From: a virus
Taxonomy: Duplodnaviria > Caudoviricetes
DNA: 64,000 nucleotides
IMG/VR virus record: IMGVR_UViG_3300037851_000284
Location: 128,001 to 192,000 of that record
Direction: 5' to 3' (one strand)
Below, piece after piece: positions 2,035 to 54,502 of this stretch. The notes beneath the pieces are model-generated. The model was not told the DNA's origin. It saw nothing but the letters and a program-made list of their open reading frames with translations, and did no database searches. The position numbers were made by a program, and so were the translations under genes. Within the stretch, counting starts at the first letter, position 1. Every line of letters starts with the position of its first letter.

Positions 2035-3930
2035 TTAATGTCCTAAATCTAATATTGACCCAGAAATAACTCCAGAAATAACTGGCATTATTATATAATC
2101 AGTACCAGCAGATATATATCTCTTAATTACTTGATCTATATAATGTTTAAATTCGCGTTCGGCTATAAGTTCGGCGTCTTCTACATTAGTATAAGTTTTA
2201 AAATGGTCAATCCACTTTTGTTTTATGGAGGTAATAGTAGTATCTGGAAGATGAATAATTATTAGACTGCTTCCCGAAAGAGCCTTTCCGTCATAATTAC
2301 CTAAATCGGAATACCAATCCTTTTCATGATAATAGTTTCCGCTAAGATTGGTTCTAAACCAGTCTTCTAATTTATTATCAATTTCTAAGCTACCTATTCT
2401 CCTAGCATCTGTTAATTTTACTAAGTCTGGAGTTAGCTTATTAAGGTCTATCTCGCATATTCTAAAATAACTATCATCCATTGTTACAGATGAGGAACTT
2501 AATGACCCTACATCATATATACCACTAGCTGTATAAGGAGTTGAAATATTGTATATATAGGGAACTCCTCCGCTAGAATACGGAGCTAATGCTATTCCTA
2601 ATCCATCAGTATAATTATTTATATGAAAAGCAAATCCTCCACTAGTAGATATTTTAGGATTAAGTTCTAGATTCTCAAGCATAACGAATCCGCTATTATT
2701 TAAATAATACGATAACTCTATCTCGTCTGTGACATTAAACGTTGTATTAAATTCTATAAATCCTTTTTGGCGGTCTAAAGATTTTATTTTAATATCTTGT
2801 CTAGTTTTCCCGTTTATATCCACAGCAAAAGTTCCAGACGGAGAATATAATCCACTACTAGTTTTATCATATAAGTTTATTCTATAATTTGGATAGACAT
2901 ATTGTGATTCATCCACATCAATAGGAGTCTCTTTTACTTGTAATATATTTTTATTAACATAAGTCGGTTTAATATTGGTTATAGCAATATTAGAACTATT
3001 ATATATATTTTCTACGTTATATAAATATCCGCTATTTCCAGTATATAGACCGGATTTAGTACAAAATGCTCCTATATTTAAGCGTAATTTCCATTGCGCG
3101 TCTTTATCAGACATATAAGTATTCTGACTTTTAATAGTAATAATATCCAACGGATTAACTCTTTTTGAAGGGTCTTTAATAATATTAATAGGAGCACCCT
3201 TTGTATTTAATTTTCCTCCAGATAATACATTTAATCCAGAGGACGTAATTGAATAATCCGTGTCTGCTTTATAAATCGCTTTTAATTCGATTAATTCTTT
3301 TTGATACACATTAACGTTATTAACTATTTTATTATAATCAATTGTATAAAAATCTTTTTTGGATGAGAATTCGAATGGTAATAAAACCCTTATCCTGTGG
3401 ACAGTAGCAGATTTTATATTTTCCCAAGTAGTAGAAGAATATCTTAAGTTACCATCTTTCAATAGATTATAACTATACTGGATTTTATAATCGTTTTTAT
3501 TTACAACCGTTTCGTTATTCTTATATATATTTTTTATTGCTATTCCTGATATATCTGAATAAGCATCGAATAACAATTCATATTGATAAAATAAGTTTCC
3601 ATAATCAGTAACTAGATATTCTAGTTTATGATTATTTGTAGAAGAATAAGGATAATGGGTTATTGGATAATTTGTTCCGCTATAAGATAAGGTTTCCATT
3701 TTATGAAAATCCTGCGTATTTTCATAAATATCGTTTTCCCTTGATATTAAATTTACTATTTTGTTTGGGCTGAATCCTTCATATTCTATAGCAGCAATTG
3801 GACAATCTCCACCTTGATATGGTTGTTCAGTACATATTAATTGAGGATTGAATGCTTGAGTCCTAGATATATTTAAATAATAGCTTGGCTGACCTACACC
3901 AGATATATTTCCACTAATTAATAAATCCAT
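2035..3930 (-). CDS. Putative virion structural protein (631 aa)
   Basis: Long ORF coupled to its neighbours in the tail gene operon; no recognisable catalytic motif. Confidence 0.6.
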   Translation of the reverse strand: MDLLISGNISGVGQPSYYLNISRTQAFNPQLICTEQPYQGGDCPIAAIEYEGFSPNKIVNLISRENDIYENTQDFHKMETLSYSGTNYPITHYPYSSTNNHKLEYLVTDYGNLFYQYELLFDAYSDISGIAIKNIYKNNETVVNKNDYKIQYSYNLLKDGNLRYSSTTWENIKSATVHRIRVLLPFEFSSKKDFYTIDYNKIVNNVNVYQKELIELKAIYKADTDYSITSSGLNVLSGGKLNTKGAPINIIKDPSKRVNPLDIITIKSQNTYMSDKDAQWKLRLNIGAFCTKSGLYTGNSGYLYNVENIYNSSNIAITNIKPTYVNKNILQVKETPIDVDESQYVYPNYRINLYDKTSSGLYSPSGTFAVDINGKTRQDIKIKSLDRQKGFIEFNTTFNVTDEIELSYYLNNSGFVMLENLELNPKISTSGGFAFHINNYTDGLGIALAPYSSGGVPYIYNISTPYTASGIYDVGSLSSSSVTMDDSYFRICEIDLNKLTPDLVKLTDARRIGSLEIDNKLEDWFRTNLSGNYYHEKDWYSDLGNYDGKALSGSSLIIIHLPDTTITSIKQKWIDHFKTYTNVEDAELIAEREFKHYIDQVIKRYISAGTDYIIMPVISGVISGSILDLGH

Positions 3931-5039
3931 TGAGGTCCTCGTTTTCTAACAGAAATTTTATTATATTTATCAATTTCTTTAACTGCTTTTTTTGAATAAT
4001 CTATATTAGAATGGTATATAATATTTTTAAGAACAGGCTTATAGAATTTATTTTGTTCTTGAATAGATTGTGAAGAAAGAATATTATTTTCTGTTGTATA
4101 TAACGGACTTGGACTAAAATACGGAGGAGTCGTATTATTAGCAACAGGACAATATCCGGCGCCTATATCGATTCTAGGATTACCAAAGAGGTCAATGCTG
4201 TAACCAACATAAGGACTATTTCCGACCCGAGGAGGGGCGGTTACATTGACTAGAATAGTAGATAAGTTTAAAACGCTTGAACTTTGTTCTCCTTGAGACC
4301 ATAGGGTATATGGAGAATTATAACTTCTATTTTCTATCCATTCTCCAGACCATCCCCATTGATTAGAAGTATCAACGACTGTAGTACAAATAGAAGCCGT
4401 GTTGTCGTTGAATCCGCTATCTTCAATAGCACAATGGTCTAAAGTAATTATAAAATTTCCAGATAATTCATATGCAGAATAAGAAGTAAGGTTTGTTGTT
4501 TGTAATAAACTATCTTTAAATATTACTTGACTAGAACTCGTTGGTTCATCTGGAAAATTTATACAAATACAATCGTTACTACCATTAGAAAATATAGTAC
4601 ACCCTAAAATCGAGGACGTTTCGTTATCATTAATATAAATATCAACAAGACTTGTTTCGATGTAAGTTGTTTTAAAAGTTACATTCGATTCTACTTCTAA
4701 TCCTTGAACAATAAAAAGTAATCCTCCATCAATAATTGACCCAGAAGCAATTGAAATTACTGGTTGACGCCAATGTTCTGACGGATTTCCTTGATTATAA
4801 GTCATAATCCAAGGTTCGTCAACGCCATTTTCTTGATTTGTATGCCAAGGATGAATTTCTCCGCAAATAGTCAAATGAGCATGTTCTGCAGTATATAAGT
4901 GACTTCCAGTACCCTTAACATATAAAATATCAGAATGTGTAGTAATTACTTTATGCAACCATTCCTCTAATCCATAAGGATTACTAGTAGTTCCAGTTCC
5001 ACCAGAAGCCAAAGATAGATTATAATATAAATTTGCCAT
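3918..5039 (-). CDS. Putative beta-helix (pectin-lyase-like) tail appendage protein
   Basis: N-terminal YYNLSLASGGTGTTSNPY start, beta-strand-rich body, and a C-terminal DLFGNPRIDIGA motif typical of the ends of parallel beta-helix proteins. Confidence 0.5.
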   Translation of the reverse strand: MANLYYNLSLASGGTGTTSNPYGLEEWLHKVITTHSDILYVKGTGSHLYTAEHAHLTICGEIHPWHTNQENGVDEPWIMTYNQGNPSEHWRQPVISIASGSIIDGGLLFIVQGLEVESNVTFKTTYIETSLVDIYINDNETSSILGCTIFSNGSNDCICINFPDEPTSSSQVIFKDSLLQTTNLTSYSAYELSGNFIITLDHCAIEDSGFNDNTASICTTVVDTSNQWGWSGEWIENRSYNSPYTLWSQGEQSSSVLNLSTILVNVTAPPRVGNSPYVGYSIDLFGNPRIDIGAGYCPVANNTTPPYFSPSPLYTTENNILSSQSIQEQNKFYKPVLKNIIYHSNIDYSKKAVKEIDKYNKISVRKRGPQWIY

Positions 5040-5041
5040 AT

Positions 5042-5455
5042 TTAGTACTGATAATATCTTGGTGATAGCCTGATAGGGTTACCACTTGCTATAACTCCGG
5101 CCTTATCAGGAGGAAGCAATTCTGACCATAATACTCCACTATTTGTATTATTATATGATACAAAATAACTATATACGTTTGCCCAAGATCCAGAAGCGAC
5201 AGTAAAAGTAACTTCAGATCCAAATAAGTGAGGGTCTGTTCCAGAAACAACTACCCAGTTAGAACATAGTTTTCTAGAATATCCACTACACGTCGTACTA
5301 GATAACTCAGTTAATCCTGAAGGAGTCTGATAACTTCTGGTAGGAACGACGGTGTTAGTGGCAAGACCTACATATACTCCACCATTACCCTCTATCTTAG
5401 TTTGTATGGCGCTTAATAACCAATATTGACCGCTTGTTGAAATTATTCCATTCAT
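5042..5455 (-). CDS. Small tail-fibre base/adaptor-type protein (137 aa)
   Basis: ELS...GYSR...W...F.VASGSW pattern seen in small phage minor tail proteins; distant paralog of 56815..57246. Confidence 0.5.
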   Translation of the reverse strand: MNGIISTSGQYWLLSAIQTKIEGNGGVYVGLATNTVVPTRSYQTPSGLTELSSTTCSGYSRKLCSNWVVVSGTDPHLFGSEVTFTVASGSWANVYSYFVSYNNTNSGVLWSELLPPDKAGVIASGNPIRLSPRYYQY

Positions 5456-6067
5456 TTAAATAAGTCCATCTATTATCTTTAATTCATCTATTGCACAACT
5501 CATTGTAGAAAGTTGATCAATAATACTAAGATCTTTTCCGAGAGTTGTATCAAAGACTGCTTCTGGAGTAAATGTTTTTTCAACATCATCCATTAATATT
5601 ATAAATTTAGTTGCAGATTTATCATATTTAACAATAATATGATGCCAATCTGTGTCACTAATCACTGCATCACTATGATATTCAACCTCACCATTTGGAT
5701 CATATATCATAAAGTTTTGAGTAGATTTTACTAATTGTAATGACCAATAATAACCACCTGTTGTATCATAAAAATTAAGAATAGTTATATTATTCAATGC
5801 TTCGGAATCATAACTAATTTGTTTGTAATAAAAATCTGCCTCGAAATCTTGAGAAGTATTAAAAGATTCAATATTTTGATTTGTAATTCTCCAAGTATCT
5901 TGTATAGCTCATTCTTCAACAGTAACATAAAGACATCTACCGACATACCCATCGATATACGCCCACTCGTCCCCTTTATGAGTTACTATTAAGTTATTAG
6001 GTCCCGAATCTGTATCATTATCTTCAAACTTAAGAAATAATATAGTTCCACTACTTGTAGCAGATGT
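5456..6067 (-). pseudogene. Second LamG/concanavalin-A-like domain, in frame with 6068..7087 but behind a TAG and interrupted by a TGA
   Basis: After TAG (6070-6068) the frame reads TSATSSGTILFLKFEDNDTDSGPNNL...YIDGYVGRCLYVTVEE, then TGA (5911-5909), then AIQDTWRI... into ORF 5456..5797 (WHHIIVKYD...IDELKII). This is a complete LamG pattern with no ATG of its own. Confidence 0.7.
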
Positions 6068-7087
6068 CTAACCAGACCCAACTATATCGATTCTAGAAAT
6101 ATTAGACCAATAACCTGAATTGTCTACTGTTGCTAAAAGCTTGGCTTGACAACTATTTATAGCAGTTATTCTACTACAAGTATGATATAAATTTGCATAT
6201 CCAAACTTATTAGTATATCCTGTGTCGGCTACTTTCCAAGAACCACTATAATTCAAGTATAAAGATACTGGAATATTAGACAAATAAAGAGGTTGAGCAT
6301 TTATATTAGTATAAACCTCTGCTTTAAATTGCAGCTTATCATTAGTACCAGATTTATAAGGCGTAAGTCTTTGATTTTTAATGACTGGCACAACTTTATT
6401 AGTATTTTTAAGTATTATTCTTCTATCGGTAGAAGTTGTTGTTGGACCATCATCATTATCTACATTATCTACTGATATTACACTATCATAAATTCTTATT
6501 TCATCAATCAATCCAGCAAACTGAGAATACCACGCCGCGCCAAAACGCAATGTTACTAGATTATTAGCAATAAATCTTTGCGTAGTGGGGTCATTTAATA
6601 TTTCTACGCCGTCAAGATAAACGAAGGAATATCCATTATTATATGTCCATAATATTTCATGTAGGTCGCTGTCACCAATAGTCCTGGTGCAATTAACATT
6701 AACTCCTCCGACGTTTAAGGCAATAGCCGTTTCGTACGGACTGTCTATTTCACCAGCAAGACGAATACCCCAATCAGCAGCTATGCTAGATGTAACGCCG
6801 CCTTTTGCAACAGGAAAAAAGGCGTTTACGACATCCGTAGTCTCCACCTTAATCCAAAAACGAACGGAAAAGGATGCAGTAGGAGCAAAATTAAAAAGAG
6901 CATTATTTGCCACTACTAATGCGCCATAATCATTCTGTGCTAATTTGCTAAAATTAAGACGAAATGCTTGACCGACAGCCCCAGCAGCATAGGTAGGAGT
7001 CAGTGACCCCTCCCAGGTCGCATACAAGCCAGCCTTTGACTCATCTGGATTATTTTCGCCTTTCCACCACAGTATAGGAGCAGTCAT
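6068..7087 (-). CDS. LamG/ConA-like lectin domain plus C-terminal docking module (putative receptor-binding protein)
   Basis: LamG hallmarks FSVRFWIK, LHEILWTYNNG..VYLDG and GLIDEIRIYD. The C-terminal ~115 aa are homologous to the C-terminus of 8721..10181. Confidence 0.75.
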   Translation of the reverse strand: MTAPILWWKGENNPDESKAGLYATWEGSLTPTYAAGAVGQAFRLNFSKLAQNDYGALVVANNALFNFAPTASFSVRFWIKVETTDVVNAFFPVAKGGVTSSIAADWGIRLAGEIDSPYETAIALNVGGVNVNCTRTIGDSDLHEILWTYNNGYSFVYLDGVEILNDPTTQRFIANNLVTLRFGAAWYSQFAGLIDEIRIYDSVISVDNVDNDDGPTTTSTDRRIILKNTNKVVPVIKNQRLTPYKSGTNDKLQFKAEVYTNINAQPLYLSNIPVSLYLNYSGSWKVADTGYTNKFGYANLYHTCSRITAINSCQAKLLATVDNSGYWSNISRIDIVGSG

Positions 7088-43232: not shown

Positions 43233-45542
43233 TTATTCGGACCAAATATTCTTAGGATATTGAGTCTCTTTAGCAGCTTGATAATCCTGATTTAGTTTAT
43301 AAATATTTGGAGTACTTTCAGGTGTAGTATAGTTTTTATTAGTTTGCATTTTTAACGTTTCTACCATCTCGTCCCTAGGTAAATTTTTTATTTTAGGAGG
43401 GACATAAGGAGGATTAGGTTTTACTTCGTTTCCATAGTTATACCCATATGGAGTAGGTGTTGTGTTTCTATATCCTATTCCTAGATTTCTTCTTATAGTT
43501 TTTTCAAACATTACAGGAGAATAAAACTTTTTCTCCGATTGTAAGTGATAGTGGTCGTTTATATAATCTACGCGTGTACCAATTTCAATCTTTTGTCCCA
43601 CTTTTAAATTTTTCGTATATGAACTAGGAATATGAGCGTATCTTACTACACCTTGATTAGTTCTAATGCTAAATGATTCTTTCCCTATTGAATAAACTTC
43701 TCCCCCAAAAGCAGCAGGAGCATAACCTGCTGTTTTTGTTATATTATTCTTTTTTATTATATTACTTATATCTGCGAAAACATAATTACTTTTTCCAGCA
43801 CTCAATGGATGTTCATCAGCCCTAGTAAAGTGAGTAATAGTTGTTCCAGTAATAGCAACTCCAGTTTCTGAACCATCGCTGGTCATATCTGATGCTTTTG
43901 GAACAATATTCTTTTTCTCTGTATTGGCTATTTGTTCTACTTGTTTTAAAGCTTCAGCTTCATTTCTAGCCTCTGCTGAGTTTTCTTCAAATATAGAAAG
44001 AGAATAATTTGGTGCGGGTTCTTGTTTAGTTTCTACTTCTTTAATCTTATTTTTTTCTCTTTCTTTAGGAGTTAAAGATTCCTGCTTAGGAGCGCTAGGT
44101 GGTTTTCCCCAGAATAAATCTTCTCTAGATAATAGGTTGGTTGCTTTAAATCCTGTTCTGGTAGGAGATATTACTTTAAATGTGTATGTATCTGGGATTC
44201 TTTGTTCTAATATCATGGTAATTTTTTCATCAGGAATAGTAGTATTACCATTTAAATTACCAAAAGTAGTAGCGACTATGAGTTGAGAATACCTTGATAG
44301 GTTTACAGGATCTGTATCAGTTACTTTAGCATTTATTACATTCTCAACAAAAGAACTTAATTGGTCTATAAATGGAGTGACTTTATTATAAGAAAAAGAT
44401 AATTTACTAATAACTTTATTCAAAGGTTTCCAGCCATTGTTACGTAAGAAAGATGCCTCAGTAGCAACAGTAACATAAGTTCCTTGTTTATCATCTAGGA
44501 AGTTCTCAAGTTTTTCTATATCTTCATATTTTGATAATTTACTATCTGTTCTGACAGAAAGTTTAACTGGATTTAATCTTATTACACTATTTGAGCTTGT
44601 AATACTATCATTTATATCCCTAGCTATAAAAGTGTACATTTCTCCAATGGGGTCTCCAGTTGGGGCAACTATTAAACTATTACTGGTAAAATGAACATCG
44701 TTTAATATTATTACTGTATGTTCCGCCCTATAATCATTAATATCTCCAAAGGTTAACATTATATTTAATACATTAGCATAACTTCTACCTTTAGCTGTTA
44801 TTATACCACCGTTAGTTTCATGATAATCAAACTCGTCGGCTCTTTTAATCTTATTCAAAAGAGTAAGCTGCTTACCATTCTGGTCTCCCCATATACTATC
44901 TTCTAATATTTCGGCAAAATCCTCAAAATCTCTATTCTCACGATCAAAACCCATATCTTGACTCAAACTGGTAGAAATCTTTTTACTAGATAATATTTGT
45001 TCTATAGTTTGACCTTGTCGTATAAAGTTTGGTGTTCCATCAAGATTATAAACCGCTTCAACTTTAGTACCATCTTCGTTTATAGTAGTTAATCCAGGAA
45101 CGAACTCTTGTTTATCTTGCAGCTCATCAGAATAAGATTTTAACTTTCTCTGAACTGCTTCAGCTTTATTTTTCCTTTGAGAATCTATAAGAGCTTGAAT
45201 TATATTTAAATAACCAGTTTCTTTAAAGGCAATAGCTAGATTACCTTCTACTATTACCTGTCCCTTAGCTATAGCATCAAAGTTCTGAGAAGCATACCCA
45301 TAAATAGGAACTTTAGATTGAGTAACATTATATTGGATAGTAATTATATCATCCACCCAGACATCACCAAAAAATATCTTACAGTCAGTTCCTGCAAAAT
45401 AATCATACGGATAAGTTTGATAGTTATCTCTAAATGCCGTTGCTGAAGTAAATGGGTCTTTAGATGAACCGGAAAAACTCTTAGCCTGTTTTTCCTGCAT
45501 TGCGGTCTTAGTCTGCCTTAATTGATTTTGTAAGTCTACCAT
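43233..45542 (-). CDS. Tube-like (tube initiator) domain fused to a C-terminal M23-peptidase-like domain (769 aa)
   Basis: The N-terminus aligns with the tube paralogs (FAGTDCKIFF...IQYNVTQSKVPIYGY; MYTFIARD). The C-terminus has AFGGEV, RYAHI...LKVGQKIEIG...DHYHLQ. Confidence 0.55.
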   Translation of the reverse strand: MVDLQNQLRQTKTAMQEKQAKSFSGSSKDPFTSATAFRDNYQTYPYDYFAGTDCKIFFGDVWVDDIITIQYNVTQSKVPIYGYASQNFDAIAKGQVIVEGNLAIAFKETGYLNIIQALIDSQRKNKAEAVQRKLKSYSDELQDKQEFVPGLTTINEDGTKVEAVYNLDGTPNFIRQGQTIEQILSSKKISTSLSQDMGFDRENRDFEDFAEILEDSIWGDQNGKQLTLLNKIKRADEFDYHETNGGIITAKGRSYANVLNIMLTFGDINDYRAEHTVIILNDVHFTSNSLIVAPTGDPIGEMYTFIARDINDSITSSNSVIRLNPVKLSVRTDSKLSKYEDIEKLENFLDDKQGTYVTVATEASFLRNNGWKPLNKVISKLSFSYNKVTPFIDQLSSFVENVINAKVTDTDPVNLSRYSQLIVATTFGNLNGNTTIPDEKITMILEQRIPDTYTFKVISPTRTGFKATNLLSREDLFWGKPPSAPKQESLTPKEREKNKIKEVETKQEPAPNYSLSIFEENSAEARNEAEALKQVEQIANTEKKNIVPKASDMTSDGSETGVAITGTTITHFTRADEHPLSAGKSNYVFADISNIIKKNNITKTAGYAPAAFGGEVYSIGKESFSIRTNQGVVRYAHIPSSYTKNLKVGQKIEIGTRVDYINDHYHLQSEKKFYSPVMFEKTIRRNLGIGYRNTTPTPYGYNYGNEVKPNPPYVPPKIKNLPRDEMVETLKMQTNKNYTTPESTPNIYKLNQDYQAAKETQYPKNIWSE

Positions 45543-46633
45543 TCTCTAGTAGTTGTTCCTATTGGTGTGTTTACAGCATGACTTATATAATCATTTACAC
45601 TGGTAGCAACCCCATTATCAAGACTTCCCTGAGCATTCCAACCAGTCAAAGTTCTTTGTTTAATCTCTATTTGGTTATTAATGGATTCTAATTCTTTATA
45701 TAATCCTGTTAGTATTTTTAATTGTTTATCTTTCTCTCTCTTTAAATCTTCTCTTGAAACATAATCTTTACCATTAGCTAATCTATTTAGCCATTCCGAT
45801 GCATAAAAAGTAAACGCTCCAGCCACTGCTCTTTTATTAGTTTCTTTATCTATCTCAGCTATAATAGTTTCACAATCAGTAATATCTTGTTGAACTTTCT
45901 TTTGATAATCCATAAGAGCAGAAAATTGATTATCAATAAATAATCCTTTAACTTGTCTTTCAAACATCATATCTTTAAATTCCGCAATATCTTTATAAGC
46001 TATCATCTGGTCCATATCTTTAGCCACATATTGCATAGTACATTCACTATATAAATCGTTAATACTATGGACTTGACCCTCATCTAGAAATTCTACACCA
46101 TATAGTCTGGTAATTGAACGATGACCATATTCATTTTGAAATAATAGTATTAAATCAATAGGAGGTAGTTGGTCGGGTAAAGGAGAAGTGGTCCTATCCG
46201 AAGGATTCTTAATATAATTTAATTCTTTTATAACATCATAAAGTGGGGCTCTATCAAACACGATAAATATCATACTTCCCGCAATTGTTCTTGGACCAGC
46301 AGTATATCCTTTTGCGTGGGAACGACCTAAAACCCTTACAGCTGATTTTTCCCTATGAATAGAGTGAGATATAGTTTCTAGATTACCTAGAACTATAAGT
46401 TTATTATTAAGCTGAGCTATTACTGTACAGTCGCTGCCACTATAAGAAGTATTAGATTTACTAAAATCTATTAAAGGGTCAGCATCAAAAGGATTAGCCT
46501 CGGTAGGACCAAGGGACCCTCCAAGATAAGGTTGGGTAGAACCTAACAAATTAGTTTTAACTTGTTGGACCACGTCTTTAACAAATGGGTCTTTTTTTAA
46601 TTTATTAACTTGTTTATCTAACCACGTTGACAT
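45536..46633 (-). CDS. Tail tube paralog (tube initiator-like, 365 aa)
   Basis: GNLETISHSIHREKSAVRVLG...AGSMIF..FDR...DQLPP...NEYG...GVE...EG...SINDLYSE..MQYVA aligns end to end with the spliced tube protein. Confidence 0.75.
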   Translation of the reverse strand: MSTWLDKQVNKLKKDPFVKDVVQQVKTNLLGSTQPYLGGSLGPTEANPFDADPLIDFSKSNTSYSGSDCTVIAQLNNKLIVLGNLETISHSIHREKSAVRVLGRSHAKGYTAGPRTIAGSMIFIVFDRAPLYDVIKELNYIKNPSDRTTSPLPDQLPPIDLILLFQNEYGHRSITRLYGVEFLDEGQVHSINDLYSECTMQYVAKDMDQMIAYKDIAEFKDMMFERQVKGLFIDNQFSALMDYQKKVQQDITDCETIIAEIDKETNKRAVAGAFTFYASEWLNRLANGKDYVSREDLKREKDKQLKILTGLYKELESINNQIEIKQRTLTGWNAQGSLDNGVATSVNDYISHAVNTPIGTTTREW

Positions 46634-46646
46634 AATTTTTAGGTAT

Positions 46647-46672
46647 AAAGCCCTTGTTTTATTAAGGGCTTT
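46647..46672 (-). terminator. Hairpin terminator after the tail tube gene
   Basis: Inverted repeat AAAGCCCTT/AAGGGCTTT directly after the exon 3 stop. Confidence 0.6.
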
Positions 46673-46679
46673 ATTTTAA

Positions 46680-49405
46680 TTAAGCATTAAAAGGCAAACT
46701 TTGTGCAAGTTGAGCCTGTTGTATGGCGGTTAAGTTATTCATCTGAGTAAGAACATCAGCCTTAACATTAATATTTCCGCCTAGTTGAGAAATAGGTCTC
46801 CATCCAAGTATTGCGCGAGCTACGAATGTCCAATTATGTTAGCTTAATATTACTATTAAGATCGGACTGTGTCTTCACCTTTTGTTTACAAGAATGGCAG
46901 ATTCTGCTTTTATCGTGCAATAGAGAATAAATATTATTACATATATCACACTTTCTTCTACCATAATTTTCTTGATTTCTATTTTTTAACCAATTTTCAA
47001 AAACTTCTTTTTTACGAGAAAGATAAAAAGCGTTATTATCATACATATACCAAAATATAGATAGGCTTTCTAAGTGACTATATTGTAATCTATAACATTC
47101 TTCGTGATTATAAATTTTAGGTATTATTCCAAGCTCTTCTTTTAGTATATTACCAAAAGATTGTAAATTTTCTTTTAATTTATTTACTATTTGAACCTGC
47201 AACCAAGACCCGCTTTTATCGTTTCTTAAACTTATACATCCGTCTCCATCAAAGTAACCCCTAGTAAAATACTTAAAATATTTCTTATCTATAGTAGGAA
47301 AAATATTCATGTATGTTTTATTAGGAATAATTCCTAAAGATAAAAAATTTTGTACTAAATTGTTTGATGTTTTTTGAATATAAAAATATTTATTTTCATA
47401 TTGTGAGACAGAAGTGTCTAATTTTAGAATTTTTTGAATCCATTCTATTAAATCCTTATCTTTTGATTGCCATCTTATTCTTAAAGTGGATTTATTATAA
47501 TCTACACAACCATCAGCATAAGTGTAACCAAGCAAATAATAGAAATCTTCTTTTGTGCAATTAAGGGTACTACATACAGTCTCTGAGGGGAGTTTACCGT
47601 CATTTTGACATTCTCTTCCCTGCGAATTATCCATTTGGATTTTCTCGCATATAGTAGTATTTTTCATTAAAAGTTTCCTTTTAAGCAGACAACGATTCTA
47701 TCTGAGTTTCACTGACAATGTCGTCGATCGATACTCCAGCTCCTTCATTAATTAACTCAACTCCTAGAAGATGCATAGCAGAAATATTACCATACTCATT
47801 CATAGAGGTTAGTGTAATTGTAAAGGGCGGAAGTTGATCGGAATAGTTTGCGATACTTTTTTGTGATCCAAGTGCTCCCAAACTATCTAGATGTTCTTTA
47901 TGTTCTTTTCCCAATAACAAACTTCTTCCACCAGCAGGAATATCTGTAGATTTAGCATAATACTTGTATCTATCAGACGGTCCAGAATTACTGGCGCTAT
48001 AGGTTCCTTGCATGATATCATACAAGGCATGTCTATCGAAGTTTGTAAAGATCAAGGATCCAGCATGGCCTCTTTTGCCTCTGCCAAACGAAACAGCGTC
48101 AACAGATCCTAATACATAAATTGGCATTTGTAAATTAACCTTTGTTAATTAACAATGGACTATACCATCACCCATTTCTGGGGTCCAGCGTTTAGTCTCT
48201 GCAAGCGAATCTGATTTCTCAGTCTTGCTCTCAGGCTCCTTGTTAGATGAACTAACAACTTGGCTGATTTGAGCTGGATTAATTTTTCCAGGAGTTTCCC
48301 CACTGGCAAGCGCCAACTTTCTCGTAAGATTAAAACAATTAGAATAATACATAAAATTAAAAATCTTTTTAATATCCTCTTTCGAAGAATATCTAATTCT
48401 ATAACAATTAACAGATCCTTTATTGTGAATAGATGGATTTTTTTTGCTACATCCGATCTTTTCCAATTTTTTTTCTAAATCACTTATAAAATTAATATTT
48501 CCAAGAAATTGATATGTCTTTTTTGAATTATCTTGATAAAAAGAACCGTCTCCATCAAAATAACCACGAATTAGATCACGTAAAAATTCTTCTGGAACTT
48601 CCGGTAATCTTGCTCTAGCACTTTTATTTGGAATGACTCCTTTTATAATTATATCATTTACCATTTTTTTATTATGGATATATAAAGCGCAAGAATTGCG
48701 TGTTTTTTTAATACAAATAGGATTTTCACAATCCATTAATTTCTTAATATTAAATAAATGATTATAATCTTTCATTGATAATTCACACGAAATTCTATTT
48801 AGATGTGGTTCCACGCATCCATCTGCAAGAAAAAAACCAATCACATAAGCTGATTCCTTTGTCCAATTTTCAAAAAAATTGAAATTAATATTATAATTTC
48901 CGCATTTTCTTTGATATCCCAATTTTCTTGCTTGAACTTTAATTGCTTCTCTTGTTCTATTTGGTAATAATTTCCAAATATTTGGGTTACAAGAATAATT
49001 ATCTTTAATAATTTTATTCTCTTTTGCAGTCCATAGTTCTCTAGAATCTAATTGTAATTTACTAGCCTTATGTCCTATTGCGTTATAAGACAAATTTAAT
49101 TTATTTGCTATTTCCTTATATGATAATTTATTATAATTATCTTTAAGAAAATCAATTTTATATTTATCCCATTTTCTTGGAGAACAATTTCGTGTTATTT
49201 TTTCCATATTATTCTAACTCTTTTAAAATTAATGAGTTATCGCTTTTTCTCTTGTAGTAGAGAAACTTATACCATTCAAATTTCCGATTAGAATACCGTC
49301 AATGGTAGCGACGATATCTGTACCAGCAGAGGAATTATAAGATTGTCTTATACCCTCGGTTGCAGCTTCAACTGTTTGATAGTTGGCTGGGTTATTACTA
49401 CCCAT
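46680..49405 (-). CDS. Tail tube protein, three exons (49405-49241, 48124-47700, 46830-46680; 741 nt, 246 aa)
   Basis: GGAGG RBS then ATG at 49405. The joined exons give ...TTREKA|PIYVLG... and ...IVSETQM|TFVARAILGW...LPFNA*, colinear with the paralog 45536..46633 and directly downstream of the sheath gene. Confidence 0.88.
46831..47699 (-). mobile_element. Group I intron 2 (869 nt) in the tail tube gene
   Basis: Canonical U|...G| boundaries. P1 CAGAU/GUCUG with U-G wobble; P2 UUAAAAG-GAAA-CUUUUAA; P3 UACUAC/GUAGUA; P4 UGCGAG/UUCGCA; P7 GAGACUG/CAGUC; P9 CUUAAUA-GUAA-UAUUAAG. Confidence 0.92.
46834..47667 (-). CDS. Intron-encoded LAGLIDADG homing endonuclease (277 aa) with a C-terminal Cys4 zinc-ribbon-like motif
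   Basis: YYLLGYTYADGCV and YFTRGYFDGDGCI; CDIC...CHSC at the C-terminus. Confidence 0.9.
   Translation of the reverse strand: MKNTTICEKIQMDNSQGRECQNDGKLPSETVCSTLNCTKEDFYYLLGYTYADGCVDYNKSTLRIRWQSKDKDLIEWIQKILKLDTSVSQYENKYFYIQKTSNNLVQNFLSLGIIPNKTYMNIFPTIDKKYFKYFTRGYFDGDGCISLRNDKSGSWLQVQIVNKLKENLQSFGNILKEELGIIPKIYNHEECYRLQYSHLESLSIFWYMYDNNAFYLSRKKEVFENWLKNRNQENYGRRKCDICNNIYSLLHDKSRICHSCKQKVKTQSDLNSNIKLT
48125..49240 (-). mobile_element. Group I intron 1 (1116 nt) in the tail tube gene
   Basis: IGS AAAGUUGGCGCUU (48320-48308) complementary to the ligated exons; P2 CCAGUGGG-GAAA-CUCCUGG; P3 UCCAGC/GCUGGA; P6 GCAAG/CUUGC; P7 GAGACUA/UAGUC; P9 UUGUU/AACAA; terminal G at 48125. Confidence 0.88.
48149..49207 (-). 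CDS. Intron-encoded LAGLIDADG homing endonuclease (352 aa) with N-terminal HTH-like repeats
   Basis: AYVIGFFLADGCV and LIRGYFDGDGSF; N-terminal W...E...I.DNY repeats. Confidence 0.9.
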   Translation of the reverse strand: MEKITRNCSPRKWDKYKIDFLKDNYNKLSYKEIANKLNLSYNAIGHKASKLQLDSRELWTAKENKIIKDNYSCNPNIWKLLPNRTREAIKVQARKLGYQRKCGNYNINFNFFENWTKESAYVIGFFLADGCVEPHLNRISCELSMKDYNHLFNIKKLMDCENPICIKKTRNSCALYIHNKKMVNDIIIKGVIPNKSARARLPEVPEEFLRDLIRGYFDGDGSFYQDNSKKTYQFLGNINFISDLEKKLEKIGCSKKNPSIHNKGSVNCYRIRYSSKEDIKKIFNFMYYSNCFNLTRKLALASGETPGKINPAQISQVVSSSNKEPESKTEKSDSLAETKRWTPEMGDGIVHC

Positions 49406-49428
49406 GGATTCCTCCAAGGTTAAAATAA

Positions 49429-49457
49429 TAGGCGAGGAGATATTTCTCCCCGCCTAG
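49429..49457 (-). terminator. Rho-independent terminator after the sheath gene
   Basis: Minus strand TAGGCGGGGAGA-AATA-TCTCCTCGCCTA followed by TTATTTT. Confidence 0.7.
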
Positions 49458-49472
49458 ATATCCAACTAGCGA

Positions 49473-52238
49473 TTATCTAGTTGGGAGATTCTTACGTAGT
49501 TTTACTGTGGTTCTAATCTTTTTAATCGTAAAGATAGGAACCAGTATTAAATCTACTTCTATGATTCCCAGTACTTGCTGGTTAGGAGTAGATGAGATGG
49601 AGAAATCAAAACCTCTAAGACCAGACATACTCATAAGAGTATTAGATATCAACTGTTCTAGAGATGCTCTGACTTCAACACTATTTGGCTGACCAATAAA
49701 GGTTTCTGCTATAGCATAAACTCTATCAGAAGCCGCAGCTGTAATACTATACGTACTCCAGTTTACGAAATCGCTTCCAATAGGCGCAGCAGTTACGTCC
49801 TCTATAATAACTGGGTCTTTACCAATCCTAGTTTTCATAGTTACGTATCTTGCCGCATTTAGCGCCTCGTACTGTGATGTACTCAACGAATATCTAAGAG
49901 CTTGAATACCGTTAATAGATTTATTCGTTGGAGATATATCATAAGGCATTGATGCTATCATACCAGCATAGGCAGCCTGACCATTAGCAACATAAGGACG
50001 ACCTCTACCGACATTCAAGAATACTGGTTCAAAAGCAGCAATAGATATAAATTTACTCTGGATTAGAGACATTATATTTGCGGTTCTGTTTGGATCTTTT
50101 AGGTCTTTAACAGTTGCTTTTGTTACCCATTTATCTTTATGGGCTTGAGTTACTTCGTCCATCGGTGTTACAGCTAGTATTGCGTGAGGCTGAATATTAT
50201 TTATAGATAGATCTTCCATAAAATCATTAAGATCTGAATAATAATCTGCTGGAATTGTTTCCTTTAGACCAGTAATAGGATTAAATCTTTCAGAGAGTTC
50301 ATCTATAAATGCGCTCATTGGTACCCATATATTAGCTCCATAGTTACGAAGTCTATCATAACATGTTACCAATTCTTCTTTACGTTGACGAGGAGTTAGA
50401 ACGTTTCCGTTAGTACCTCCACTCAGAGATTTGGCAGCAGTAGTAATATTTGGGAATGTTGGAAGATAAGTATACCTAAATCTTATATAGGTCTTTGCTG
50501 TGTTTGTAAGTACACCAGCATTAGGTCCAGGTAATAGTTTAGGGTCATCAAACATTATCTTTCCATTAGCGGCATCACTGACTGTTAAATTACTTCCAAG
50601 TTCATATTCTGTTCTTGTTCCATAATTTACTGTCATATTAAATGCTGGAGGAGTATTAAATATAATCTCCTGACCTCTTACAAAGTAATCACTTAATGTA
50701 GTAGATGATGTTAATGCGTTAAGATTTTCCTTCTCAGTTAAAAATCCTTTAACTGTATTAGCTGTGATTCTGACATAAACTCCTTCTCTAATAACGTTTC
50801 CTGAAGTTACTATGCTTTGCATAATAGGACTATTTGCAAAAGAATCCGGTCCAATTTTAAATATTGCCACACCAGATGTATATTCAGATAAATAAATACC
50901 TGATATACCATTATAAGGAAGACTCTGCCAGAAATCATTAGGATCATCTGTAAGACAGACTTGAACATCAATTTTACCAGAAGGTCTTACTGAAACTCCA
51001 TCGATAGTTCTAGTAGCGATACCAGAACAGGTAGCTCTAGCTCGTCCAGAGAAACTACTCGTTCCGTTTCCAGAATAGTTGGCATATGTAGTAGTAATTA
51101 AACCGCTTATATATTTATCAGCTATTCCACTATTAACTAATTCTTCGTTATCGCAAATACATAGAGGAACAGTTATTCTTAGCGAGTTTGTTGCTACACC
51201 AGCACTAAAATAACCACCAGATCTGGTAGGTCCGCCTTCACCAGTTCCACCATCCATAAAAGCAGCATTAAGATTATAAATATATTCAGATTTTACAGTT
51301 CCCGACGGGTCTTGTATATATTCTGAGTCGCTATTATAATCGTAAAGAGCTTGGATAGTGTTCCAGCAAGCGGGAGCCTTACCGTCTAGAGGCATGTGTT
51401 TTAGTTTATTTACAGCTTTACCAGCACATTGAATCTGTTCATATTCTGAAATACTTACCGATTCAACGGTGTCGATTTCTATAATATCATTAGCAGCAGA
51501 AGTAATTCCGCGAATAGGAGTAGGAATCATATAACCGGTAGTTGTTATATAACCATTAGCTATTAGTTCTCCTAGATCTACTTCAACGAATTCCGTGGTG
51601 TTTGTTACACCAGTACTATTACCACTTATACATACTTCATAGTCTGCTAGAAGTCCTGAATAGGTGGCCTTTAAAATAGTATTTAAATTTGAATCAGCAT
51701 TTATTGCGTCTACCAGTTCAGCAACATTATGTGCAACGACGTTAGGATTTGTTGGTTTTTCAGTATCAATACTAAATGTAGAAGTAGTTCCAGTTTTTGG
51801 ATTATAAATAGCAACATCTCTATTTTCATCATAACTGATACTAACACCATTATATATGGAACCAGGATTTAAAGCTTCTAGTTTCATAGAAGTAGTGTTT
51901 CCGCCATATTCGGTATCTTCACCGCTGCCAGTAGTTTCTTCTATTTCTAACTTAGCAGTTTCGCCATTACCAAGACGAACTCCTACCACTGTAGGGTGCC
52001 CACCTTGTACATCCCAACATTCGAAGATTCCACGAACTAGATCTCCAGCACCAAGCCTACCCCATACATATTCAGCATCTTCAGGTTTTTCAATCTGAAT
52101 AGGCTCGTACATAGGACCATCTTCAGCTGTTCCTAATATTACGACCCGCTTATTTCTTTGTATAGGATTGGGTGATACGTTGAGACCATAATCTTGGATA
52201 TATGTAGCTGGAGAAGGTAGATTAATTTCCTTAGCCAT
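49473..52238 (-). CDS. Contractile tail sheath protein with large insertion domains (921 aa)
   Basis: VVILGTAEDGPMYEPI...AEYVWG, LSGGTNG, SPTNKSI.G...L...QYEALNAARY, and FIGQPN...L...I...L..M...RGFDF...IEVDL.LVPIF.IKKI sheath motifs. Confidence 0.93.
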   Translation of the reverse strand: MAKEINLPSPATYIQDYGLNVSPNPIQRNKRVVILGTAEDGPMYEPIQIEKPEDAEYVWGRLGAGDLVRGIFECWDVQGGHPTVVGVRLGNGETAKLEIEETTGSGEDTEYGGNTTSMKLEALNPGSIYNGVSISYDENRDVAIYNPKTGTTSTFSIDTEKPTNPNVVAHNVAELVDAINADSNLNTILKATYSGLLADYEVCISGNSTGVTNTTEFVEVDLGELIANGYITTTGYMIPTPIRGITSAANDIIEIDTVESVSISEYEQIQCAGKAVNKLKHMPLDGKAPACWNTIQALYDYNSDSEYIQDPSGTVKSEYIYNLNAAFMDGGTGEGGPTRSGGYFSAGVATNSLRITVPLCICDNEELVNSGIADKYISGLITTTYANYSGNGTSSFSGRARATCSGIATRTIDGVSVRPSGKIDVQVCLTDDPNDFWQSLPYNGISGIYLSEYTSGVAIFKIGPDSFANSPIMQSIVTSGNVIREGVYVRITANTVKGFLTEKENLNALTSSTTLSDYFVRGQEIIFNTPPAFNMTVNYGTRTEYELGSNLTVSDAANGKIMFDDPKLLPGPNAGVLTNTAKTYIRFRYTYLPTFPNITTAAKSLSGGTNGNVLTPRQRKEELVTCYDRLRNYGANIWVPMSAFIDELSERFNPITGLKETIPADYYSDLNDFMEDLSINNIQPHAILAVTPMDEVTQAHKDKWVTKATVKDLKDPNRTANIMSLIQSKFISIAAFEPVFLNVGRGRPYVANGQAAYAGMIASMPYDISPTNKSINGIQALRYSLSTSQYEALNAARYVTMKTRIGKDPVIIEDVTAAPIGSDFVNWSTYSITAAASDRVYAIAETFIGQPNSVEVRASLEQLISNTLMSMSGLRGFDFSISSTPNQQVLGIIEVDLILVPIFTIKKIRTTVKLRKNLPTR

Positions 52239-52242
52239 TTAT

Positions 52243-53202
52243 TTATCCTCCGAGTTGGTTTCTTTGAATCCATTTTTTGATTAATTTATCATATTGGGAT
52301 TCTATATTAAAATCTGTAGAAACAATAGGTTCCTGCAGATTTTGAACATTAATATTTAATGTAATCTGTTTGATAGGTCCAATAAAAATTGGTCTAACTC
52401 TTTCGGTTCTTATATAGTATAGTACCGATCGGACATGATAATTATTCTTCATTTCCAATAGAGTATTATCCCTGACCCGTCTATCAAAGTACATATTAAC
52501 TATACCGGCCTCTCTAAACATACCAATATAGTTATCCATATACTCTTCTAGAAACCATTCGGTCAGTCTTTCGGCTTCATAGTTAGATTTACTCCATATA
52601 TTATATTGGACTAAATTATCAAATACTTGAGCTTTCATTTTCATATATCCGTATTTTTCGGATATATCTCTTATTAAGGTTTCGCTAACTCCTATAAGTC
52701 TTTTTCTTCCCTCGGAACCATAATAAGCAATAAACTCTCGGTGTCTACCTTTTAATTCTCTAGTTCCTCTAAAAGGATCATCTTGAGACACCGTTCCAGG
52801 TTCTTGTCTAACTACACCCCAAGTTATTGCGTTTTGGATAGTTAGAGGAGACGCCTTATATTCAGTTGGTCTATTTTTAGGTAATAAAAACTCAGGAAAA
52901 TCAGGGGAAAAGAATATACCTTTTTCTTGGATGCTTCTATCAATACTGAACCCTGATATTGAATAAACTGGAGTTATCGCATTTATTAAGTTGTTCTCGG
53001 TGCGACAAGGAGCCATTATTTCCAGTGATTTAGACATCATATCATGCATATCGCAGATAGTATTAATTTTACCAACTGAACGTAGTCTTGGTGGGTATTG
53101 GTTATATACCATCTCAAATTGAATAGGTTCAGTATTTGAGTTTTCCATTACAACAAATCTAAAATCTGGAGCAGCCTTAGATGGATTTGGAGAAACTATC
53201 AT
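52243..53202 (-). CDS. Putative tail terminator/neck protein (319 aa)
   Basis: Immediately upstream of the sheath; QVFDNLVQYNIWSKSNYEAERLTEWF pattern typical of tail-completion proteins. Confidence 0.55.
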   Translation of the reverse strand: MIVSPNPSKAAPDFRFVVMENSNTEPIQFEMVYNQYPPRLRSVGKINTICDMHDMMSKSLEIMAPCRTENNLINAITPVYSISGFSIDRSIQEKGIFFSPDFPEFLLPKNRPTEYKASPLTIQNAITWGVVRQEPGTVSQDDPFRGTRELKGRHREFIAYYGSEGRKRLIGVSETLIRDISEKYGYMKMKAQVFDNLVQYNIWSKSNYEAERLTEWFLEEYMDNYIGMFREAGIVNMYFDRRVRDNTLLEMKNNYHVRSVLYYIRTERVRPIFIGPIKQITLNINVQNLQEPIVSTDFNIESQYDKLIKKWIQRNQLGG

Positions 53203-53771
53203 TAATAACTCATTTCGTCATATTGGCAACTTGTTATGTAATACTGAACATTACCGTTCTCTAGACGGTAATCGTGTACTCTTTTAACTTGGTAGCGGTC
53301 TTTGTATAAAAGACTAGTATTTAAGGTTGGTGTTTTTGCGTGGTCGTCCCAGACTAACTCAAATATGTGGTCTCCAATAGCCGGAACCACAGTATATTCA
53401 AAATAATATATATATTTATCACTAATATCGAGACCAACTTTAGTAGGATCTAGAGGTAATCCAGACCTATCGGTCGGTAGCCTTCTTGTTCTTAATAGAG
53501 TATCAGTATATTTAAATGCTGGTCCTCCAACACCTTCTTGAGTTCTCTCGCTATATTGAAGGGATTTCTGAGACCTATCGTATCGTCTATATACAACCCA
53601 GTGGCCTTTAGGAACACGCATCGGAAAACTTTCTTTACCATATAATAACCAATGCATTTCTAAACGTAAATCAATTCCTTCGCCTTGGGTTGATACTTCT
53701 CTATATACAGAACCGGCAATATAATTATCGACTGTTTTTACATCAGTGCTAAGAGTAGGATACCAATTCAT
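53202..53771 (-). CDS. Putative head-closure/neck protein (189 aa)
   Basis: Neck position; YYFEYTVVPAIGDHIFEL...V..YRLENG..QYY pattern. Confidence 0.5.
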   Translation of the reverse strand: MNWYPTLSTDVKTVDNYIAGSVYREVSTQGEGIDLRLEMHWLLYGKESFPMRVPKGHWVVYRRYDRSQKSLQYSERTQEGVGGPAFKYTDTLLRTRRLPTDRSGLPLDPTKVGLDISDKYIYYFEYTVVPAIGDHIFELVWDDHAKTPTLNTSLLYKDRYQVKRVHDYRLENGNVQYYITSCQYDEMSY

Positions 53772-54502
53772 TAAATACCTCTATACCACCATGTTCCTGG
53801 AGTATAATTATTACCATAAGGTATCACGGGTCTAACAATTCTGTTATATGCGTCTTCCCTAACTGGATGAGCATAACCCTTTGATATATCATAATATGCC
53901 TTAACAGTAACAGACATATTTTTAAACATTCTCATTGATTCGTTCCAGCAAGTATATAAGTCGGATAATCTCTTAGGGTCTATATTATTAGACCCTCCGC
54001 CGCTACCTCCATACTTAATTGTCATATCACCAAGAGTTTTTAATTGATTAGCTGAGTCTCCAGACATCTGTTGTGTAACCCGCATAATAGATAATACATC
54101 ATAAGCAGTTTTACACTCAACATATCTTCTTATATTCTTAGGAACATCTTGCCAGTCACATCCCCAATAATCATAAGCTATATTTAATCCATTACTCATA
54201 TTATATAGATCAACTGCGTCTATTGAGTTTTTATGAATCATTCTCCAAATTGTATCATCTATTATACTTTCGGCTAATGGTCCGATTTGGAGTTTAATTC
54301 TATTCGCTGTGCTAAATTGTGGACAATATACGCTTGTGAACCAAAATTCATATGGTTCTTCCATAATATCTGTGGCTCCAGAAGGAGGTATAACTCCAGA
54401 TATTCCTTGGCTTAATAAAATAGTATATTGTCTATTATTTATAATATCTGTTGTAGGATAGATATATAAAACGTTCCCGCTAATAGCAGTTGTAAAATCC
54501 AT
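53771..54502 (-). CDS. Putative head-tail adaptor with an N-terminal half Ig-like (Big_5-type) segment (243 aa)
   Basis: N-terminal GNVLYIYPT..I.NNRQYTILLS.GI...YEFWFTS, then an adaptor-like helical region with KTLGDMTIKY. Confidence 0.55.
   Translation of the reverse strand: MDFTTAISGNVLYIYPTTDIINNRQYTILLSQGISGVIPPSGATDIMEEPYEFWFTSVYCPQFSTANRIKLQIGPLAESIIDDTIWRMIHKNSIDAVDLYNMSNGLNIAYDYWGCDWQDVPKNIRRYVECKTAYDVLSIMRVTQQMSGDSANQLKTLGDMTIKYGGSGGGSNNIDPKRLSDLYTCWNESMRMFKNMSVTVKAYYDISKGYAHPVREDAYNRIVRPVIPYGNNYTPGTWWYRGI

Follow-up and report, generated by a model that had tools for sequence, protein, structure and literature searches.

The DNA considered here, a stretch of 64,000 nucleotides that is called the window throughout, covers positions 128,001 to 192,000 of the virus record IMGVR_UViG_3300037851_000284, a 219-kb jumbo phage record from IMG/VR that is ~95% complete. 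Following a tail-sheath gene on the minus strand, the window contains a split gene for a structural protein of ~245 residues, which is composed of three exons and two inserts, each insert with a LAGLIDADG open reading frame (ORF). The split gene probably encodes the tail tube, a label taken from its position alone, and Pfam contained no model for its product. We found that the first insert, hereafter intron 1, is by core sequence and covariation a real group I ribozyme, and that, as judged from its sequence, the U·G wobble pair is absent from its 5' cut whichever of two registers is chosen. In the register that we favor, the last exon base would instead form an ordinary Watson-Crick pair with the internal guide sequence. 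The features are collected in table 1.

The position of the junction was fixed at the protein level. A search with the exon 2 protein returned more than 600 relatives, mostly uninterrupted and 230-255 amino acids long, with ...NGISFSTTREKAPIYVMGSVDAVSFGRGKRGHAGS..., and the intronless orthologs show ...STTREKAPIYVMGS... in the junction region. The motif TREKAP(I/V)Y is shared without exception by 63 distinct intronless alleles from IMG/VR, and thus the spliced message must be GCN CCA (REKA/PIYV; a slash within a sequence marks a splice site). When every in-frame, stop-free join around both intron ends was enumerated, REKAPIYV was obtained only from GCG/..G/CCA or GC/..U/GCCA. The U·G register GCGAU/ was in frame only if the intron ended in a base other than G, and joins that combine U at position -1 with a terminal G added two or three residues (REKAIT/P, REKAITH/P) inside the motif. 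The predicted mRNA across the ligated exons reads ...AAAGCGCCAAUUU.... Whereas group I introns are recognized by U·G at the cut, the pair found at this place is G-C in the window, A-U in relatives, and C-G in the other register.

With the endonuclease ORF occupying the P1 loop, the guide comes to lie 920 nt from the 5' splice site, one base before P2. It forms five Watson-Crick pairs with AAGCG of exon 1 and, contiguous with these, six Watson-Crick pairs and one G·U with CCAAUUU of exon 2. Its 7-mer GGCGCUU occurs a single time in the 1116-nt intron (at 48314), where 0.006 occurrences are expected from base composition. The intron bases UAACU (49239-49235) are also able to pair with the same guide bases. 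A first-pass annotation made from the letters of the window had proposed the junction GCG/CCA, this distant guide with both of its exon pairings, a last exon base G paired to C rather than in a U·G wobble, and a frameshift for the only U·G register with a terminal G; the orthologs, the sequence itself, and the enumeration of joins bear these statements out.

Table 1. Features of the split tube-like gene, of its two introns and of the neighboring sheath gene (positions in the window)
Feature	Coordinates	Strand	Remarks
Exon 1 of probable tail-tube gene	49241-49405	minus	55 codons, ends ...ACA AGA GAA AAA GCG (REKA); tblastn of intronless ortholog P0005, residues 1-55
P1 5' strand, AAGCG (last five exon bases)	49241-49245	minus	G49241 precedes the predicted cut; five Watson-Crick pairs with 48312-48308
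Group I intron 1	48125-49240	minus	1116 nt; in the favored register, first base A49240 and last base G48125
LAGLIDADG homing-endonuclease ORF, in P1 loop	48149-49207	minus	352 amino acids; PF14528 39.2 bits (cut-off 22.5); phrog_4645 E = 1e-49
Internal guide sequence AAAGUUGGCGCUU	48308-48320	minus	13 nt; P1 with exon 1 through 48312-48308, P10 with exon 2 through 48320-48313
P2 hairpin, GAAA loop	48288-48306	minus	One base after the guide; RNAalifold, two compensatory positions
J6/7, P7 5' strand (GCAGAGACU), J7/3, P3 3' strand (CGCUGG)	48185-48202	minus	Bulged A48198; G48197 of the G-binding pair
P7 3' strand region GGUAUAGUCC	48157-48166	minus	Invariant in five family members; matches the Rfam consensus GAUAUAGUC
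Intron 1 3' end, AAUG	48125-48128	minus	Possible P9.0-like pairing of AAU with AUU (48156-48154), right after P7; G48125 is the predicted terminal (omega) G
Exon 2	47700-48124	minus	tblastn residues 56-194; starts CCA AUU UAU GUA, ends CAGAU at 47700
Intron 2	46831-47699	minus	Canonical: CAGAU/AGAAUC, guide GUCUG (47690-47686) giving U·G, end AAUUG/GACAUU; RF00028 3' half 25.2 bits
Intron 2 LAGLIDADG ORF	47667-46834	minus
Exon 3	46680-46830	minus	tblastn residues 195-243 at 46829-46683, plus first base G46830 and the stop codon
Tail-sheath gene	49473-52238	minus	phrog_16991, E = 2e-37

Relatives of intron 1 at the same site were located by an exon 1 peptide search, which returned short ORFs with REKA and then unrelated residues at the end, each the footprint of an insert at exactly the A/P site, and by one metagenome pattern scan. 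Complete copies were obtained from L004, which holds the window's intron in another strain, and from the diverged lineages L008, L009 (= L014), L012 (= L016, L017), and L013; L005, L006, L007, and L010 are partial and contain the intron 5' end only. The contig of L006, a GCC allele, stops 23 nt into the intron, with the guide outside the contig. Two more same-site alleles, P0133 and P0150, are known without DNA and stand outside the DNA counts. Some candidates were rejected: L011 and L015 from the metagenome scan were chance matches, the intron of L058 is another one, canonical and located two codons downstream of this site (AUU/), and L059 is merely a truncated contig. Among 50,697 phage records, neither megablast nor blastn found a match to the region or to the core. 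Exact core patterns in IMG/VR gave none, or two chance matches (L056, L057), an endonuclease-based locus search in IMG/VR found none, and a pattern scan of GTDB genomes gave 38 matches, in none of which the rest of the core was present, so that all of them were due to chance.

The core, the location of the ORF in the P1 loop, and the end ...UG/CC are common to all complete copies. In every one of them, each of the last five exon bases finds its complement in the five guide bases before GCCAG or GCUAG. The pairing is AAGCG with CGCUU in the window and AAGCA with UGCUU in L009, L012, and L013; in L008 it is AGGCA with UGCCU, where the change of the Lys codon from AAA to AAG is matched by a change of the guide from U to C. 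Two P1 positions thus co-vary, namely position -1 (G-C versus A-U) and position -4, the wobble base of the Lys codon (A-U versus G-C), and each of the five members has five Watson-Crick pairs, so that none of the 25 cells is mismatched. P10 starts with CC paired to GG in all of them; the third pair of P10, A-U in the window, is U-A in L012. Conditional on the favored register, a terminal G precedes CC in all five complete introns, and P10 consists of CC with GG or is longer throughout. The first intron base (+1) is A in eight of nine alleles and G in L013, and the guide base that faces it is always G. The window lineage has a U·G pair at +2 and then four Watson-Crick pairs (AACU with AGUU), whereas the other lineages lack anything comparable.

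The alleles also differ in their use of the Ala codon. Its third base in nine distinct intron-bearing alleles is G in two, C in one, and A in six, while U occurs in none; the 63 intronless alleles have GCA in 27, GCU in 26 (41%), GCC in 9, and GCG in 1. The probability of finding no U among nine would be ~0.009 if the alleles were independent, which they are not, and an avoidance of U at the last exon base is only suggested by these counts.

The ribozyme core can be recognized from several sides. When the region 48100-48340 was searched by itself, an end-to-end alignment to RF00028 was obtained (23.4 bits, E = 3.5e-4; the gathering score is 50) with P2, P3, P6, P7, P8, and P9 in order. There was no group I match for intron 1 with Rfam at the gathering threshold on the whole window or at E <= 10 on 44000-54000, nor any match in an RF00028 search of the whole 219-kb genome. 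The five cores of the window, L008, L009, L012, and L013 were aligned at ~70% column identity, and RNAalifold gave a consensus of 43 pairs, 17 of which (in P2, P3, P5, P6, and P8) have compensatory double changes; the fold of the ribozyme core has thus been under selection. P7 consists of G, a bulged A, and GACU against AGUCC (GCAGAGACU with AUAGUCC), which is a standard G-binding helix; its 5' strand region is family-invariant except for one base in L012. The R and S consensus elements are recognizable as GCAGAGACUAAACG and GAUGGUAUAGUCC. The helix of AAU with AUU has an analogue in L013 (AAUGA with UCAUU), in agreement with the P9.0 pairing and terminal G of the first-pass annotation. The AA of J4/5 is still present and invariant in the family, which says nothing on a possible loss of the wobble receptor. 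The RNA of intron 1 is predicted to splice. In L013 (1050-1269), an extra hairpin of ~21 nt (GUUUUAUC..GAUAAAAC) is located between the P7 5' and P3 3' strands, the position of P7.1 in IA introns, where the other four family members have AAA or ACA only.

The endonuclease of intron 1 has two LAGLIDADG domains, with weaker WhiA-type and LAGLIDADG_1 matches at residues 119-286. The last ~55 codons of its ORF (48149-48320) traverse the guide, P2-P6, and the first strand of P7, and the stop codon lies 24 nt from the 3' splice site. Such read-through into the core was also found in L008 and L009. Because phage endonuclease homologs align to residues 7-301 only, this tail probably exists because of the ribozyme sequence and is unlikely to be a functional domain.

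Other introns of the same gene are canonical. Besides intron 2, the orthologous gene of L002 has five introns above the RF00028 gathering score (60-85 bits), all of which are cut after U. The noncanonical site therefore belongs to the intron 1 family, and not to the gene or the method. The L002 gene (UViG_3300035208_001008, 2988-4543) is broken by these five separate group I introns without long ORFs. Across relatives, there are at least six insertion sites within the first ~90 codons of the tube-like gene (R/E, A/P, PI/Y, G/S, KR/G, and LI(F)/T), which makes the gene an intron hotspot. On the L009 contig, which carries an intron at the A/P site, at least two more LAGLIDADG ORFs are found further along the gene (4260-6195); at the LAGLIDADG insert after GRGKR/, exon AAGCGU pairs canonically with the guide GCGCUU, a hexamer of the window's intron 1 guide. 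Downstream of the split gene, the window contains paralogs of the tube-like domain (43233-46633), a 365-residue protein and the N-terminal part of a 769-residue protein. Both match phrog_9206; for genes right after the sheath, its label "major head protein" looks wrong.

Considering that the two registers yield identical mRNA, the place of the cut had to be judged from other properties of the intron. Either the cut falls after N, the third base of the Ala codon GCN (GCN/...G/CC), or both splice sites lie one base upstream (GC/N...U/GCC); in the latter case the cut would follow C49242, paired as C-G with G48311, the intron would end at U48126, exon 2 would start with GCC, and the intron would begin with N, paired in an extension of P1. 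Several observations favor an upstream cut. GC/G CCA also reads Ala-Pro, and the C-G pair is family-invariant, as is U48126 in all five; the C itself is forced by the Ala codon. RNAalifold paired the guide bases GGY with GCC. A C-G pair at the cut has natural precedent in a class of tRNA introns (bioRxiv 10.1101/2020.01.27.920355) and among introns whose last exon base is "exceptionally a C" (PMC4227781), it fits the Y-G rule of the Anabaena intron (PMC12355055), and a terminal base other than G exists in ND5-717, which ends in A (PMC8146996). Nevertheless, two rare deviations would be required at once, a standard G-binding P7 should not accept U, and U48126 is paired in the helix after P7. 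Moreover, the G on the exon side would then be a free synonymous position, and yet the base before CC is G in all five complete introns, with neighboring synonymous sites drifting (Lys AAA or AAG, Pro CCA or CCU, Arg AGA, CGC, or CGU); as a codon base it would give GCG, which is found in 1 of 63 intronless alleles, and the U-type guides would be better matched by A. This constant G supports a terminal G, and so do the standard G-binding P7 and the P9.0-like helix of AUU with AAU right after it, the usual delivery of the terminal G. The spacing between the guide partner and P2 gives no ruler for the register, being 3 to 5 pairs in canonical introns of the same gene family. We infer that the cut follows N, a register that we hold to be reasonably probable, and consider a cut one base upstream unlikely. 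The first-pass annotation had rightly noted that GC/G...U/G needs an intron end other than G, but its rejection of this split was too firm, given that the mRNA is the same.

Three further explanations would avoid such an unusual cut altogether. A canonical cut after U with a terminal G at a nearby site (REKAIT/PIYV or REKAITH/PIYV) would keep the frame and meet no stop in the window; however, U49235 is opposite A48318 instead of G, U49232 has no guide partner, and the extra residues would disrupt a motif shared by all 63 alleles. Different residues would be inserted in L008 and L009, and there is no equivalent in L012, where no in-frame U precedes the stop (GCA AAG UAA), so that a join of U(-1) with a terminal G is unavailable and no canonical site is open to the whole family. 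We regard this explanation as very improbable. An error of sequencing or assembly at 49241 or 48312, for which nothing speaks beyond the rarity of the feature, is practically negligible. Both sides of the pair would need simultaneous errors, and L004, an independent contig of the Joint Genome Institute (JGI) from another sample and strain, has the same G49241 and C48312, while a single base of the endonuclease gene and a 9-nt indel in exon 2 set it apart from the window. L005, a third, more distant contig from ENA with an exon 1 peptide 87% identical, reads GCG/AUAACUCAUU, sharing both the G and the intron 5' end. The preference of the first-pass annotation for a functional variant over an error is upheld by these bases and by the matched changes of exon and guide in the four diverged lineages. 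The exon 2 difference (47880-47900) is GKEHKEHLD in the window against GKEHLD in the near-identical L004, explained by a tandem duplication or a deletion of 9 nt in a variable protein loop.

It is also conceivable, although improbable, that the intron remains unspliced and that the tube-like protein is made as two polypeptides, with exon 1 ending in REKAITH before a stop and exon 2 starting from the ATG at 48127. The read-through of exon 1 does meet an in-frame stop four codons past the junction, gene callers give both pieces as separate ORFs, and an in-frame ATG (48127-48125, the last three intron bases) stands directly before CCA, with AAAGG (48143-48139) 11 nt upstream. On the other hand, 17 compensated core pairs and a P1 guide that co-varies with the exon would be purposeless without splicing, the break would fall inside the invariant TREKAPIY motif, and intron 2 leaves exon 3 without its own start codon at the junction. 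The first-pass annotation had pointed to this ATG and AAAGG as a possible splicing-independent start. Both are present, but they are not conserved as such a signal: AAAGG upstream is found only in the window, within a lineage-specific hairpin region, and L008, L012, and L013 have no Shine-Dalgarno-like run. The codon at the intron end is AUG in four complete family members and UUG in one, L013, because the terminal G is fixed and preceded by a paired U.

Several points nevertheless weigh against a cut after a Watson-Crick-paired N. The Anabaena permuted intron needs Y paired to G, and reversal of U-G to G-U abolished its reaction (PMC12355055). A synonymous GCU together with a guide G would restore the canonical pair, and yet U is the base in none of nine intron-bearing alleles against 41% of the intronless ones. 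Its absence would be odd if this base were really -1; shared ancestry and an easy transition path could explain it, since A-U can pass to G-C through G·U, which is not so for a change from A to U. The alternative cut one base upstream leaves the mRNA unaltered and has the precedented C-G pair. Furthermore, the five complete sequences represent about three P1 types, so that the covariation comes from few independent events, and splicing of intron 1, in any family member, is a prediction from sequence.

The last base of the 5' exon is virtually always U and exceptionally C, as stated in a survey of IStrons, in which group B IStrons were nevertheless found to end their 5' exon in G; among them BcISt1 of Bacillus cereus splices after G, according to reverse transcription PCR and circle junctions, with U·G shifted to intron base +1 and an internal loop after it (PMC4227781). 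A G before the cut is thus already published, and the intron 1 family is a variant of a known oddity. Both are natural group I ribozymes with a 5' exon ending in G, in which P1 gives way to an internal loop or to an unpaired or oddly paired guide G. In contrast, group B IStrons are fusions with an insertion sequence (IS) element, belong to the IA2 type, and keep U·G one step shifted, whereas intron 1 has a LAGLIDADG ORF in the P1 loop and an A (once G) at +1 opposite G. Intron 1 has neither an IS605/IS607-type transposase nor an insertion after GG nor U·G at +1; its site is AAGCN, and only the purine before the cut is shared. Most members of the intron 1 family have no nearby U·G, and before the cut stands G, A, or C, matched by a compensating partner wherever the guide is known.

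Other comparisons concern introns with C-G at the 5' splice site. Hur and Waring are said to have described two fungal cox1 introns of this kind in 1995, with coding constraint proposed as the reason. These introns resemble intron 1 in having a Watson-Crick pair instead of U·G and are the relevant comparison if the upstream cut is right; they differ in that the favored register of intron 1 has a purine at a freely synonymous position, with no coding excuse, and that the alternative register needs a U end as well. C-G at the 5' splice site also occurs in one class of tRNA introns (Williams 2020, bioRxiv 10.1101/2020.01.27.920355). The ND5-717 mitochondrial intron of sea anemones, whose terminal base is A and not G (PMC8146996), is likewise a natural exception to a "universal" splice-site base of group I introns, but at the 3' end, and is relevant only because it demonstrates that an end other than G is possible. 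Finally, canonical phage group I introns (T4 td/nrdB type, RF00028; here intron 2 and those of L002) share with intron 1 the host gene family, the logic of a guide for P1 and P10, the P3-P9 core, the terminal G, and mobility with endonuclease ORFs. They have U·G at the cut, score 60-85 bits on RF00028, and in several cases contain P7.1/P7.2, while intron 1 scores 23 bits, lacks P7.1/7.2 and U·G, and carries its ORF in a P1 loop of 920 nt.

Based on the core, the covariation, and the junction, intron 1 is probably a functional, mobile group I intron with an endonuclease in the P1 loop, cut after a Watson-Crick-paired N. It would belong to a small intron family whose insertion site separates the Ala from the Pro codon of the TREKAPIY motif in a phage tail-tube-like gene. 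The last exon base would form an ordinary Watson-Crick pair with the guide, G-C here and A-U elsewhere, and the five-pair P1 would end at this base, against a conserved purine-G mismatch. The 3' side would be standard, with a P7 that binds G, a terminal G preceded by a short helix, and a P10 that adjoins P1 and starts from CC with GG. As a tentative proposal, which may or may not prove right, the site could be chosen without a wobble: any Watson-Crick-paired base before the cut (G-C, A-U, perhaps C-G) might serve, with its place set by the end of the five-pair P1 against the purine-G mismatch, one helical step from the usual place of the wobble G. That the purine-G mismatch stands in for the wobble pair is speculation. 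If true, the proposal would generalize the shifted site of group B IStrons.

The U·G wobble rule underlies annotation tools as well as the design of trans-splicing and circular-RNA ribozymes, which can be targeted to any U. Introns of this type are missed by Rfam at the gathering threshold, and therefore split phage structural genes of such a kind are probably under-annotated. The family could broaden the target sequences for engineered ribozymes, and with a core of ~190 nt it may offer a compact system for studying the choice of the cut site without the wobble receptor contact. For the phages themselves, it would represent a natural mobile intron family that resides in an apparently essential structural gene without the wobble pair, in which the last exon base shifts between G and A and the guide changes with it.

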